From the UHGV virus genome UHGV-0307316: DNA of 64,000 bases; one strand, given 5' to 3'. Position numbers and translations under genes: made by a program. The DNA comes from a virus. Position 1 is the first letter of the stretch. Every line of letters begins with the position of its first letter. Positions 36,098 to 48,455 of the stretch are shown piece by piece. The notes below the pieces were generated by a model that was not told the origin of the DNA, made no database searches, and saw only the letters and a program-made list of their open reading frames with translations.

Positions 36098-44206
<8,109 letters not shown>

Positions 44207-44208
44207 TA

Positions 44209-45381
44209 ATGGCAGTAGGTGAAATTCAAATTAGTGCCTTGCCTCAAGCATCCTTACCAATTGACCTTAGTGATATCTTCCATCTTAAGCAGGGTATTGA
44301 GGATAAGAGGTGTACTCTTGAGCAATTACTTGCTCCACACGCAAGCCTAAGAAATAACCCTCATGGTGTTACTAAAACACAAATTGGTTTAGATAATGTT
44401 ATTAATGCTCTTCAGTTAGTCGCTGCAAATAACTTATCAGATATTGTTAATGTAGCTGAGGCAAGAGCAAATCTACAGATTATGTCTTCAGAAGAGGTTA
44501 ATAACCTTGTCCAGCAACATATCAAGGACAAGAGTAACCCACACAATACAACTAAGGCACAGGTTGGTTTAAGTAATGTTCAGAACTGGACAACATCTAA
44601 TCTGTATAACGAAGATGCAGATAAGTATGCTACAGCAAGAGCATTAAATAACTTGTACAAGGCTGTTCAGGCTTCTTATCCAGTAGGTACTATCCATCTT
44701 TCTATGAACTCTGCAAACCCTTCCACATACTTAATTTGTGGAGGTACTTGGGAGTTAGTTTCAAAAGGCAGGGCATTGGTTGGCTATGACTCTGATACAA
44801 GACCAGCAGGTTCTATATTTGGCGCTTCAACTGTCACTTTGTCAGTTAATAACATACCTCAGCACTCCCACTCTGTGTCTCTTAGCGGTGGTGGTCACAC
44901 TCATAATGCAACTGTGTCAATTTCAGCTTTTGATTATGGGACTAAGACTACAAACTCTTTTGACTATGGGACAAAAGCTACTAACACAACTGGTAACCAT
45001 ACACACAGTGTGTCAGGTAACACTAGCACCAATGGTACTCACAACCATGATGTGTATCCTAGAGCAAATGATGGCTCTGGTAATGCTGTGGCTGACTCTG
45101 ATGGTGGTGGTCCAAGAAGGACATCAAGGACTTCTAGTGATGGTGCGCACTCACACAGCTTTAACGTCACATCTGGTGCATCAGGTGACCACAGCCACAC
45201 GGTTGGTATTGGTGCTCACAGTCATACAGTTGGTATTGGTTCACATACGCATAGTGGCACTGTAACAGTTTCTTCTTCTGAACATACACATAGTGGCAAT
45301 ACAAATAGTGTTGGTGGAGGTCAGGCAGTTAATATTGAACAGCCATCCTTCGTACTGTATGTATGGCAGAGAACAGCTTAA
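44209..45381 (+). CDS. tail fiber protein with His-rich HxH repeats
   Basis: C-terminal Gly/Ser/Thr-rich region with repeated HTHS/HSHT motifs and FDYGTK repeats; ends ...VWQRTA; terminator follows. Confidence 0.65.
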   Translation: MAVGEIQISALPQASLPIDLSDIFHLKQGIEDKRCTLEQLLAPHASLRNNPHGVTKTQIGLDNVINALQLVAANNLSDIVNVAEARANLQIMSSEEVNNLVQQHIKDKSNPHNTTKAQVGLSNVQNWTTSNLYNEDADKYATARALNNLYKAVQASYPVGTIHLSMNSANPSTYLICGGTWELVSKGRALVGYDSDTRPAGSIFGASTVTLSVNNIPQHSHSVSLSGGGHTHNATVSISAFDYGTKTTNSFDYGTKATNTTGNHTHSVSGNTSTNGTHNHDVYPRANDGSGNAVADSDGGGPRRTSRTSSDGAHSHSFNVTSGASGDHSHTVGIGAHSHTVGIGSHTHSGTVTVSSSEHTHSGNTNSVGGGQAVNIEQPSFVLYVWQRTA

Positions 45382-45391
45382 TTTCTTTACA

Positions 45392-45411
45392 GGGGCTTTA
45401 TAGCCCCTTTT
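45392..45411 (+). terminator. rho-independent terminator after first tail fiber gene
   Basis: GGGGCTTTATAGCCCC followed by TTTT. Confidence 0.6.
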
Positions 45412-45427
45412 AAGAGGAAAATTTATA

Positions 45428-47776
45428 ATGGCAGATTACAAATTGAGTGAGCTAAACTCAATCGACACAATCCGTTCAGATGACCTTCTTCATGTCAGAG
45501 TTAAAAAGAGACCTAAAATGCTGGGTGATGAAGACCGTCGAATGACCTATCAAGATTTCTTAGCATCTTTTAAGCTTGAAAGATTTGTTCAGATTGCTGG
45601 TAGCACTATGACGGGTGACTTAGGAATTGTTAAGCTACTTTACGGTGGCAAGGCTGTATTCGACCCCACAGGCTCTTCTGAGATTACTGTTGGTGATATT
45701 TTAAAGACTTTTAAAATCAACGCAAACGACCTTAAACTAACTATTGCAGACGCTTCAAGGTCGGCAACTGTTTATCATACTTTGAATAAGCCAAGCCCTA
45801 ATGAACTTGGGATGAGAACTAATGAAGAGAATGACGCAAGGTATGCAAGACTAGCCGTGAATAATACCTTTAGAGGTACTCAAGCTATCCTCTCTGACAA
45901 TGGAGCGCTCATTATTAAAAATATCACTCAAGGTGCTCCACTCTATCTTCGTGGTCAAGATGCAGATGGTACTAACAGATGGTATCTAGGTAATGATAAT
46001 AGGGGTACAAATAATCTTGTATTGAAGAATGTAAAGTCTGACGTTTCAATTGCTATTTTAGAGAATTTGGTGAAAGTCAACAGAACTCTTCAAATTGCTG
46101 GCCAAGTTCAGCCTTCAAGTTTTGCTAACTTAGATGCTAGGTATTTTACCCAGACAGCAGCTAATCAGAGATTTGCGCAGTTAGCTGGTAATAACACTTT
46201 TACTGGTACTAACACTTTCTCTAATTTTGTTGCTAAGAAGAATGCTGAAGCCATCACTCTGCGAAATGTGGACACTGCTCCCTCTTTATATATCCGAGCA
46301 AGAAAGTCAGATGGGAATTATAAGTGGTATATTGGTAATGACGGTGATGAGAACATTTTAAAAATCTATAACTATCTAACAGAAACACAAGTCTCACTAG
46401 GTAACACTATTGCCATGAGCAAAACAGTTCGAATTGATGGTCAAGTACAACCTTCTGATTGGACTAACATTGATTCTAGATATATTCCGGCAGCCACTTT
46501 GAGTAATCTCCCTAAACTTAATGTTGCTAATACTTTCACAAATGTGCAGACTATTGTATCAGATAATGAAGGTTTAGTATTAAGGAGCTTAACACAGGGA
46601 CAGCCACAATATATCCGTGGTGTTGATACTGCGAATGTATCTAGGTGGTGGCTGGGCGTAGGAACTGCTAATTCTAACGTGGTAACCTTGAGCAACAGCT
46701 TTTCAGGCACTCAAATTTCCCTAGAGCCAACATTGGTTAGTATGAATAAGAATCTGTATATTAATGGGCAGGTTCAACCAAAAAATTGGTCTAACTTAGA
46801 TGCTAGATACTTTGTTAAGACTCAGTTATTAAATCAATCTTTGATGACTGCATCTGTAGATAATCTTGAAAACCCTTCAGCATTTAATCTTGGGTATTCA
46901 GGTTTTGTCAGAAACAACAATGTGACTAGTGGTCTGAAAGAGTTGGCAATTCATGTTGCTCACTCTAGTAAGACTGCTGCACACGCAAGGGGTATCTCTT
47001 TTGTATACGGTTCAAACGGTTTGGCAACATTCACCTATGCCTATGACAAAAATGGTGACTATGCCGGAGAGGCACAGATTTACACAACTGATTTTAAACC
47101 AACCCCTTCAGAGATTGGTGCATATACTAAAGCAGAAACTGACCAGAAATTTGCAACAGCAATTAGTGACTCTACAGACCTTAATAAAATCTATCCAGTA
47201 GGTATTGTAACTTGGTTTAACAGTGATGTTGACCCTAATACAGCACTACCTGGGTTAACTTGGACGTATCTTAACAATGGTGTTGGTAGGACTATCAGGA
47301 TTGCAGCAGCAGATGGTTCAGATGTTGCTACAACAGGTGGTTCAGACTCTGTGGTGTTATCTGTTGGTAACTTACCGTCACACACCCATAGTTTCTCTGC
47401 TACCACTTCATCTTTTGATTATGGTACGAAGAACACTAATAGTACTGGTGCTCACACCCACTCAGTTAGTGGTACTGCTGCATCTGCTGGGCAACACGCA
47501 CACAGAATTTCACAGGGTGACAACGCTAACGTTCCATCAGGTAGAGTTGCATCTTCGAACTCTGCTCAGACCCATGTTGGTTGGACTGAAAATGATGGTG
47601 CTCACACCCACTCAGTTAGTGGTACTGCTGCATCTGCTGGTGGACATGCTCACTCTGTAGGTATTGGTGCTCACAGCCACACAGTTAGTGGTAACACTGG
47701 TGGTACAGGCTCTGGTTCAGCATTTAGTGTTACTAACCAGTTCTACAAGTTAATGGCTTGGGTAAGAACTGCTTAA
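45428..47776 (+). CDS. long tail fiber protein with His-rich HxH repeats
   Basis: 782-aa protein; C-terminal 120 aa homologous to 44209-45381 product; ends ...AWVRTA. Confidence 0.7.
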   Translation: MADYKLSELNSIDTIRSDDLLHVRVKKRPKMLGDEDRRMTYQDFLASFKLERFVQIAGSTMTGDLGIVKLLYGGKAVFDPTGSSEITVGDILKTFKINANDLKLTIADASRSATVYHTLNKPSPNELGMRTNEENDARYARLAVNNTFRGTQAILSDNGALIIKNITQGAPLYLRGQDADGTNRWYLGNDNRGTNNLVLKNVKSDVSIAILENLVKVNRTLQIAGQVQPSSFANLDARYFTQTAANQRFAQLAGNNTFTGTNTFSNFVAKKNAEAITLRNVDTAPSLYIRARKSDGNYKWYIGNDGDENILKIYNYLTETQVSLGNTIAMSKTVRIDGQVQPSDWTNIDSRYIPAATLSNLPKLNVANTFTNVQTIVSDNEGLVLRSLTQGQPQYIRGVDTANVSRWWLGVGTANSNVVTLSNSFSGTQISLEPTLVSMNKNLYINGQVQPKNWSNLDARYFVKTQLLNQSLMTASVDNLENPSAFNLGYSGFVRNNNVTSGLKELAIHVAHSSKTAAHARGISFVYGSNGLATFTYAYDKNGDYAGEAQIYTTDFKPTPSEIGAYTKAETDQKFATAISDSTDLNKIYPVGIVTWFNSDVDPNTALPGLTWTYLNNGVGRTIRIAAADGSDVATTGGSDSVVLSVGNLPSHTHSFSATTSSFDYGTKNTNSTGAHTHSVSGTAASAGQHAHRISQGDNANVPSGRVASSNSAQTHVGWTENDGAHTHSVSGTAASAGGHAHSVGIGAHSHTVSGNTGGTGSGSAFSVTNQFYKLMAWVRTA

Positions 47777-47855: not shown

Positions 47856-48050
47856 ATGCCTACAATCCTAGCAATTCTTCTAAAAAATCTAGGTAGCTTC
47901 TTCTGGAAACTCATTTTATCCCTTCTAAGTGAATACATGATTGAGAAAGTGTTCTTTAAGCTTGCAAGATATCTTGCGAGTAAAACAGACACACCTATTG
48001 ATGATGAGTTCGTAGATAACTTAGAAAAAGCTTTTAAGGGGGAGAAATAA
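47856..48050 (+). CDS. small membrane protein (holin-like candidate)
   Basis: 64-aa ORF with hydrophobic N-terminal helix. Confidence 0.35.
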   Translation: MPTILAILLKNLGSFFWKLILSLLSEYMIEKVFFKLARYLASKTDTPIDDEFVDNLEKAFKGEK

Positions 48051-48422
48051 ATGAAGTGGCTAGAGGAAGCTTTTAAAAATAATATTGGTGCAATTGTAGT
48101 TGGTATTTTTAGTGTTATTGGGATGTATACCACCATGCAAGTTTCAAGTGGTAAACAAGAAGTGTCTGTCACAACAAAGTTACAGCAGCTAGATAATTAT
48201 TCAAAAAGTAACTATTCAGCTATTCATGATTTACAGTCTGACATGAGATTGATTCAGCTAGGGATGGAGAACCAGAAAGTTCAGTTAGAGAATGTTAAGG
48301 GCGAAAACGCAAAACTTACCAAAACTCTTGATAAATTCTCTGACAGTGTAAATAATCTGGCTCAATCAGTATCAGCCCTCCAAGCTATTACTGAGAAGAA
48401 CACAAAGAATACTGAAAAATAA
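48051..48422 (+). CDS. membrane-anchored coiled-coil protein (spanin-like candidate)
   Basis: N-terminal TM helix then coiled-coil-like region; followed by terminator. Confidence 0.4.
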   Translation: MKWLEEAFKNNIGAIVVGIFSVIGMYTTMQVSSGKQEVSVTTKLQQLDNYSKSNYSAIHDLQSDMRLIQLGMENQKVQLENVKGENAKLTKTLDKFSDSVNNLAQSVSALQAITEKNTKNTEK

Positions 48423-48429
48423 AATTTAA

Positions 48430-48455
48430 GGCTCCCGTAAAAAGGAGCCTTTTTT
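48430..48455. terminator. bidirectional rho-independent terminator between convergent blocks
   Basis: GGCTCC-CGTAAAAA-GGAGCC flanked by A-run upstream and TTTTTT downstream. Confidence 0.65.

Follow-up and report, generated by a model that had tools for sequence, protein, structure and literature searches.

Paired tail fibre genes with T4 gp37-like, histidine-rich tips and variable heads in a Felixounavirus genome

In a 64,000-nucleotide (nt) stretch of the viral genome UHGV-0307316 (the window), two adjacent genes on the plus strand at 44209-47776 encode, as judged from sequence and gene order, the short and the long tail fibre (STF and LTF) of a Felixounavirus myophage. Both proteins end in a sequence homologue of the receptor-binding tip of T4 gp37, in which repeated His-x-His (HxH) motifs are collinear with the iron-binding motifs of T4 and flank a head segment that is hypervariable in each family. 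Together these data make it highly likely that both fibres carry a gp37-type tip, built as a metal-stabilized needle with a receptor-binding head at its end.

Identity of the two fibre genes

The open reading frames (ORFs) in question and the small gene that precedes them were as follows (positions on the window strand; P1 and P2 denote the products of ORFs 44209-45381 and 45428-47776).

43904..44206, plus strand: LTF-platform protein (100 aa), putative attachment point of the long fibre; full-length phmmer match (E = 3.1e-64) to PDB 9NDY chain S, gp025 of Bas63
44209..45381, plus strand: STF gene (P1, 390 aa); ORF, PHROG 2097, annotation of relatives, synteny with Bas63 gp24/gp25
45428..47776, plus strand: LTF gene (P2, 782 aa); ORF, PHROG 4277 over the full length (1232 bits), Pfam

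Nucleotide matches to the region were found in 234 phage records, the top ones being Felixounavirus genomes (ULIM9, ULIM3 and VpaE1 derivatives) with 92-96% nt identity, and the best-matching Felixounavirus records label both genes 'tail fiber'. The gene order is the same in all four annotated relatives (VpaE1, ULIM9, ULIM3 and NBEco005). Residues 1-389 of P1, practically its entire length, align to the C-terminal two-thirds (positions 205-600 of 644) of the PHROG 2097 'tail fiber' profile (E = 4.5e-135), and P2 matches the PHROG 4277 'tail fiber' profile over its full length with 1232 bits. Moreover, the pair lies directly 3′ of, and on the same strand as, homologues of two baseplate proteins of known structure in phage Bas63, wedge protein 1 (gp24) and the LTF platform (gp25), the former being ORF 43041-43904, a full-length match to gp024 in PDB 9NDY (E = 1e-181). 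It is because of this synteny with the solved gp24 and gp25 that P1 is assigned as STF and P2 as LTF. By synteny, the counterparts of P1 are Bas63 gp26, VpaE1 gp74 and Felix O1 gp76, and those of P2 are Bas63 gp27, VpaE1 gp75 and Felix O1 gp77. An earlier sequence-only reading of this DNA had placed two tail fibre genes here; both ORFs begin and end exactly where it put them, and their nature as fibre genes is supported by the PHROG 2097 and 4277 matches and by the synteny with Bas63 gp26/gp27 (PMC12609058).

Domain content differs between the two products. Pfam gp37_trimer matched three stretches of P2 (E = 1.8e-54) and none of P1, so that rod-like repeated beta-helix units precede the tip in the LTF and are missing from the STF. 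PF03335 (Phage_fiber) also matched three stretches of P2, scoring 32.5 bits with the complete protein and 36.6 bits when only the tip was searched (threshold 20), and PF21939 (Gp10_C) matched P1 with 64 bits, above its gathering threshold of 27 bits. A protein 100% identical to P2 (P0121) was found in JGI/ENA metagenome contigs of about 89 kb.

Architecture of the tips and the metal question

From the alignments described below, each tip was divided into five parts, all on the plus strand.

44644..44862, plus strand: STF collar domain, aa 146-218; Gp10_C / T4 collar type
44863..45048, plus strand: STF descending needle strand, aa 219-280; four HxH and two FDYGTK, alignment to 2XGF, pairs 219/221 and 230/232 invariant in 75 homologues
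45049..45147, plus strand: STF head, aa 281-313, hypervariable putative receptor-binding loop; position equivalent to the T4 gp37 head
45148..45300, plus strand: STF ascending needle strand, aa 314-364; five HxH, GxHxHxVGIG repeats
45301..45378, plus strand: STF C-terminal return to the collar, aa 365-390, W-x-RTA end; conservation of W386/R388, T4 collar D10
47183..47380, plus strand: LTF collar domain, aa 586-651; Gp10_C, BLASTP to the P1 collar
47381..47503, plus strand: LTF descending needle strand, aa 652-692; three HxH and one FDYGTK, His pairs in at least 117 of 119 homologues
47504..47602, plus strand: LTF head cassette, aa 693-725, type 'RISQGDNANVPSGRV...'; discrete head types among 120 homologues
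47603..47686, plus strand: LTF ascending needle strand, aa 726-753; three HxH, PF03335 on the tip alone
47687..47773, plus strand: LTF C-terminal return to the collar, aa 754-782, W-x-RTA end; last 22 residues 100% conserved in 120 homologues

Nine HxH motifs are present in P1 (first His at aa 219, 230, 264, 278, 314, 328, 337, 346 and 359) and six in P2 (aa 652, 676, 690, 726, 740 and 749). The FDYGTK sequence occurs twice in P1 (aa 241 and 251) and once in P2 (aa 663), and the proteins terminate in ...YVWQRTA and ...MAWVRTA, respectively, both of the form W-x-RTA. Gly, Ser and Thr make up 44% (P1) and 41% (P2) of the last 190 residues, compared with 19% and 23% of the remainder. When the residues of the whole proteins were shuffled 20,000 times, the observed number of HxH motifs was reached in none of the shuffles for either protein (means of 1.4 for P1 and 0.39 for P2); when the tips alone were shuffled, it was reached in 0 of 20,000 for P1 and 6 of 20,000 for P2. 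The pairing of the histidines is thus far beyond chance and is not a by-product of residue composition. The two tips are also homologous to each other, with 37% identity over about 187 residues (P1 157-341 versus P2 589-753; BLASTP E = 5e-27). These counts, compositions and alignments confirm the Gly/Ser/Thr-rich tips, HxH motifs, FDYGTK repeats and shared W-x-RTA ends that had been read from the sequence, as well as the proposed homology of the tips.

When all PDB sequences were searched, both proteins matched the T4 gp37 tip (2XGF): P1 through aa 146-362 (2XGF residues 18-228; E = 1.5e-28) and P2 through aa 647-761 (E = 2e-14). The spacing of the HxH motifs, with that of T4 counted from the P1-2XGF alignment, is (11)-34-14-36-14-9-9-(13) in P1, 24-14-36-14-9 in P2 and 32-14-37-14-9-9 in T4 gp37. 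The P1 series is therefore the T4 pattern plus one additional motif at each collar-proximal end, and P2 relative to T4 is without one FDYGTK-type unit and without the last ascending motif. Seven motifs of P1 and five of P2 are collinear with the iron-binding motifs of T4 gp37, and H278/H280 of P1 align with H929/H931 of T4. By sequence, then, both tips are homologues of the gp37 receptor-binding tip with collinear HxH motifs.

The T4 tip consists of a collar domain, D10 (residues 811-881 plus 1010-1026), into which a needle, D11 (882-1009), is inserted; seven iron atoms are lodged in the needle, and histidines from the three chains bind each of them (PMC6957217). H929 and H931 bind iron and are essential, their replacement by alanine not being possible, and the last 17 residues (1010-1026) complete the collar (PMC6957217). 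The W-x-RTA ending of the window proteins appears to correspond to this C-terminal strand returning to complete the collar. Metal binding by their HxH motifs can thus be inferred from direct homology rather than from analogy, and the earlier suggestion that the motifs coordinate metal gains support from the alignment of the tips to 2XGF (PMC6957217, PMC12609058). An AF2 model of P1, computed for the monomer only, shows a long beta-hairpin in which the strand at 222-272 is paired with that at 316-364, the head being of low confidence.

Conservation was assessed in alignments of 75 STF-family proteins (74 of them aligned at the C-terminus) and 119-120 LTF-family proteins from a large protein collection. 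The HxH histidines rank among the most conserved residues in both families. Across 75 STF and 119 LTF homologues the two histidines of a pair are kept or lost jointly, apart from a few single-His cases, all at one poorly aligned site, and where a motif is absent, either its module is deleted or the residue pair is substituted. At STF 359/361, for example, the substitutes are L.M or V.I in 15 of 75 proteins and V.V, D.V or S.M in three more. Such hydrophobic replacements suit two residues that point inward from a beta-strand along the trimer axis, and because they are hydrophobic pairs the HxH positions are probably buried; the His pairs would accordingly behave as buried, all-or-none units, for which these alignments add comparative evidence. 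The number of motifs in STF homologues is 6, 7, 9, 10 or 11 (nine in 54 of 75) and varies by module; therefore the needle length evolves by gain and loss of HxH units of 9-14 residues. In the C-terminal return, W386 of the STF is nearly invariant and R388 invariant among the 74 aligned homologues. By contrast with the His pairs that flank them, the heads are the least conserved segments in both families; in the STF, aa 281-313 agree in only 15-23% of the homologues.

The following mechanism is proposed. Each fibre is most likely a homotrimer that would be anchored to the baseplate by its N-terminus, the STF on a wedge protein and the LTF on the 100-aa platform protein encoded just upstream, and would present the gp37-type receptor-binding tip at its C-terminus. 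In the tip, each chain would exit the collar, descend as a strand of a six-stranded needle, form a small distal head and reascend, after which the final short strand with W-x-RTA would complete the collar. The HxH motifs would face the trimer axis, such that three chains supply six histidines to one metal ion (Fe2+ in T4), with up to nine such sites stacked along the STF needle and six along that of the LTF. This metal ladder may stand in for a hydrophobic core in a needle so rich in Gly, Ser and Thr. The head, lying between the third or fourth HxH and the next, probably contacts the receptor, which is lipopolysaccharide (LPS) or a porin in relatives. Host range might then shift either by point substitutions in the head or by recombination in the conserved HxH-coding flanks, which would swap head cassettes between fibres and between phage families.

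Several points weigh against this model. The trimeric state, the binding and identity of the metal, and the receptor are drawn from the T4 and Bas63 structures and so depend on homology throughout. The authors of the Bas63 study count seven di-His motifs in their STF, versus nine in the STF here (PMC12609058). Motifs 219/221 and 359/361 of P1 are without a counterpart in T4 gp37, for which reason their occupancy by metal would be a further extrapolation. In addition, the tip of P1 scored only 15.1 bits against PF03335, under the 20-bit threshold, and P2 scored 22.1 bits against Gp10_C, for which the cutoff is 27, although this region of P2 still aligns to the P1 collar by BLASTP.

A needle with the gp37-type fold that holds a metal other than iron (for example, Zn2+ or Ni/Co), or whose HxH sites are only partly occupied, is an unlikely alternative, albeit one to be taken seriously. 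T4 gp12 has been reported to bind Zn2+, and the evidence here does not single out a metal; the first HxH of P1 (N-I-P-Q-H-S-H) and that of P2 (N-L-P-S-H-T-H) are located at the end of the collar-type domain, outside the gp37-like needle; and the STF 359/361 site is dispensable in 18 of 75 homologues. However, seven motifs in P1 and five in P2 are collinear with motifs of T4, which binds iron at all seven of its own (PMC6957217). Quite improbable is that the HxH motifs are maintained mainly as 'His box' recombination handles at the DNA level, or as hydrogen-bond ladders, and not as metal ligands. Recombination breakpoints around the LTF head do coincide with the HxH-coding flanks, where a 45-nt exact repeat that encodes an HxH motif flanks the head, and His boxes were reportedly proposed by Tetart et al. 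(1996/1998) as recombination sites in gene 37 of T-even phages. Yet roles in recombination and in metal binding are not exclusive, the conservation at the amino-acid level holds among homologues of 35-45% identity in which DNA similarity is gone, the hydrophobic pair replacements indicate buried positions, and the homologous histidines of T4 are essential iron ligands (PMC6957217). It is very improbable that the His-rich C-terminus is an intramolecular chaperone that is cleaved after trimerization, as in T5 pb1 and K1F endosialidase, so that mature fibres would lack it. Such C-terminal domains are common on phage fibres, no separate fibre chaperone gene was recognised adjoining the fibre genes (for the two small ORFs downstream of the LTF, as candidates, no informative family match was found), and the Sf14 paper states that no Mu-type chaperones are encoded. 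But in T4 the homologous tip is retained on the mature fibre, where it binds the receptor, cryo-electron microscopy (cryo-EM) of Bas63 virions shows the tip on both fibres (PMC12609058), and a search of P1 and P2 for a peptidase S74 or chaperone domain yielded no Pfam match (E <= 0.1 to 1). The chaperone explanation was rejected on these grounds.

As to the origin of the two tips, it is improbable that one fibre gene was recently duplicated in tandem within this phage lineage. The two genes do lie side by side in the same orientation, their Gp10_C-type collars are 38.7% identical to each other compared with 22-34% to the T4 gp37 collar, and the W-x-RTA end is common to both. However, at 59-69% identity the needle strands of P1 and P2 resemble each other no more closely than either resembles T4 gp37 (63-70%), and their heads show no relationship; the N-terminal parts are without significant similarity by BLASTP; and the gene pair is present across Ounavirinae, including phages of Erwinia and Shigella. 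Because the needle identity is no higher between the two than to T4 and the heads are unrelated, these domain-wise comparisons led to rejection of a recent in-genome event. The tips would fit better as members of one old module family, that is, old paralogy followed by modular exchange. Of the duplication suggested by the sequence-only reading, then, old paralogy stands and a recent duplication in this genome does not.

Head cassettes, mosaicism and selection

The heads of the LTF family fall into few discrete cassettes. The type in the window (RISQGDNANVPSGRV..., 'RISQGDNANV...') is present in 43 of 120 proteins, and the commonest (HLGLLLVNGG..., or 'NHAHHLGLLL...' with an extra His) in 60 of 120. 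About a dozen of the 120, including those of VpaE1 and NBEco005, have a head that is all but identical to the one in T4 gp37 (YIEAWNGTGVGGNK...), and T4-like heads are also found in a few STFs, which implies that phages of Straboviridae and Ounavirinae have exchanged the head module, as have the STF and LTF positions. Among the 75 STF proteins, more than 50 head types are present, with lengths from about 30 to 67 residues. The pattern YIEAWNGTG[VR]GG[ND]KMSSYA[IV]SYR... describes the T4-type heads of VpaE1 gp75 (L001), NBEco005 (L004), P0209 and a few STF homologues.

Comparison with close relatives located the exchange at the nucleotide level. Between the window and VpaE1 or NBEco005, identity falls to about 45% only at 47449-47630, which covers the head and the adjacent HxH, with 90-95% in the flanks; this sharp drop confined to the head between highly similar flanks is a signature of cassette exchange via the conserved needle-coding sequences. 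With ULIM3, the identity is 99.6% between 42709 and about 46190, drops to 35-86% at 46190-47090 and is back at 95-98% thereafter. The divergent segment is 98-100% identical to ULIM9 (over 46670-47030), so that the LTF is mosaic with respect to ULIM3. This mosaic middle of the LTF (46190-47090; aa ~255-555) corresponds to the third beta-helix repeat and a Mu S-like region.

Within the 42709-46190 block, the window differs from ULIM3 at 13 positions, 12 of which are nonsynonymous: six in the STF (three of them in the head, at aa 286, 290 and 302), five in the first 254 codons of the LTF and one in wedge 1. The fibre genes thus show 11 nonsynonymous and 1 synonymous differences, compared with 28 and 196, respectively, in the other late genes (Fisher p = 7e-9). 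This nonsynonymous excess strongly indicates that the fibres, their heads included, have been under positive selection. Tip variation among relatives, a comparison that had been recommended as a check, was thereby examined, and the result (hypervariable heads between conserved flanking His pairs) supports the proposed host-range modulation, the head being the least conserved part in both families and a swappable cassette. VpaE1, whose LTF has a T4-like head, is specific for the truncated LPS core of E. coli B type, as T4 is (VpaE1 paper, 2015); this host specificity fits the head as specificity determinant. Since the LTF of the window carries a different head from that of VpaE1, a different receptor specificity is expected. 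In practical terms, STF aa 281-313 and LTF aa 693-725, together with their conserved flanks, are the segments to exchange for phage retargeting.

The near-identical '44-bp' segments noted earlier within the longer gene proved to be a 45-nt exact direct repeat.

47446..47490, plus strand: copy 1 of the 45-nt exact direct repeat, encoding GAHTHSVSGTAASAG on the descending strand
47596..47640, plus strand: copy 2 of the 45-nt exact direct repeat, on the ascending strand

The copies flank the LTF head, in frame and at a spacing of 150 nt, inside a pair of 69-nt segments that are 86% identical. One LTF homologue, P0222 (Logan contig SRR6743845; L007 1501-3705), is without exactly the 150 nt that separate the copies (50 aa, including the head), and the junction is inside the repeat. 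The gap could be a genuine repeat-mediated deletion, leaving a headless needle with four HxH levels, or a collapse produced by a short-k-mer assembler. It is doubtful that the repeats are a built-in recombination device which fairly often deletes or duplicates the head to yield headless or double-headed long fibres, a device that would be likened to the His-box duplications of T4 gene 37 and, if real, would permit a rapid switch of host range through loss or doubling of the head. In close relatives the exactly repeated stretch spans only 29 nt (ULIM3) or 15 nt (ULIM9), and the device is therefore not conserved.

Known fibre systems and neighbouring elements

Paired fibres that end in gp37-like needle tips with di-histidine motifs have been described before, for Felix O1 (2010), VpaE1 (2015) and Bas63 (2025), and the finding made here is thus correct and already known. 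One of the closest comparisons is Bas63 (Escherichia phage JohannRWettstein), which shares the genus and the gene order (wedge 2, wedge 1, LTF platform, STF and LTF). The fibres of Bas63, compared by their published description, resemble those of the window in having a gp37-like collar, an HxH needle and a head, the Bas63 LTF having six di-His motifs and beta-helix repeats like those of T4 gp34; the STF differs, with seven HxH in the paper versus nine in the window. The cryo-EM study (2025, Sci Adv) reports the same tip architecture for both fibres, with seven (STF) and six (LTF) di-His motifs and five beta-helix repeats in the LTF, and finds the tips to be the most variable parts across the genus (PMC12609058). 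Compared with the commonest LTF head of the family, 'NHAHHLGLLL...' with its extra His, the window carries the 'RISQGDNANV...' type.

The likeness to T4 gp37 extends to FDYGTK/DLGTK on the descending strand, GxHxHxVGIG on the ascending strand and the short C-terminal strand back to the collar; the T4 tip structure, PDB 2XGF, is reportedly that of Bartual et al. (2010). The differences from gp37 are that the Gp10_C profile fits the collars of the window better than the gp37/gp12 'Collar' profile does, that the motifs number nine or six versus seven in T4, that the heads are unrelated to that of T4, and that the tip is on a single-protein fibre, whereas that of T4 is on a four-protein fibre (gp34-37). 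Folding of the T4 tip depends on the chaperones gp57A and gp38, of which no homologue came to light in the window, no search aimed at them having been made. Collar-type domains also occur in T4 gp10/gp11/gp12 (PF21939, PDB 2FKK), of which gp10, a wedge protein of the baseplate, has no HxH needle inserted.

VpaE1 gp74/gp75 and Felix O1 gp76/gp77 are the orthologous gene pair. C-terminal similarity of gp76 and gp77 to T4 gp37 was reported in the Felix O1 genome paper (2010), and homology to T4 gp37 at gp74 aa 146-362 and gp75 aa 584-780, the same ranges as here, in the VpaE1 paper (2015); the LTF head of VpaE1 is T4-like (YIEAWNGTGRGG...), unlike that of the window. In the related ounavirus Sf14, the gp37-like distal tip was described on the longer fibre gp53, and the shorter gp52 was assigned C24-like and gp10 C-terminus-like domains (Sf14 paper). 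The present analysis makes small additions to these descriptions: the count for the nine-motif STF lineage, the all-or-none His pairs, for which the substitutes are mostly hydrophobic, the occurrence of T4-type head cassettes in STFs as well as LTFs, and the strong nonsynonymous excess.

Upstream of the fibre genes, at 40533-41156, a baseplate spike protein is encoded (207 aa, gpV-like) that ends in ...NEHTHHYYW.... Its His188/His190 correspond to the HxH assigned by the Bas63 paper to an iron site of the puncturing apparatus (PMC12609058), and they may add an independent HxH metal motif, the second one of this tail module.

One hairpin is located between the fibre genes.

45392..45411, plus strand: STF-LTF intergenic hairpin GGGGCT-TTAT-AGCCCC followed by TTTT, conserved; read from the sequence, inside the 46 nt that separate the stop of the STF from the start of the LTF

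In the terminator scan this hairpin was too weak to be called, and it may be a candidate attenuator or RNA stabilizer. Directly downstream of the LTF, two small ORFs follow in the same operon. That at 47856-48050 encodes 64 aa (PHROG 402) with a hydrophobic N-terminal stretch resembling a membrane segment, and its homologue on L007 carries the Pfam tag Phage_PM2_GpI. That at 48051-48422 encodes 123 aa (PHROG 4038) with a hydrophobic N-terminal stretch of the same kind and weak matches both to coiled-coil families and to an Rz-like spanin. The two could be lysis proteins or fibre-assembly factors. In the records of phages KhF2 and KhF3, a 'cos site' and a 'terminator' are annotated within or beside the matched tail fibre region. 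Beyond the small ORFs, a hairpin that resembles a bidirectional terminator (AAGGCTCC...GGAGCCTT), with T runs on either strand, lies at 48428-48451 and forms the boundary between the rightward late/fibre operon and the leftward genes for thymidylate synthase and dihydrofolate reductase (DHFR).

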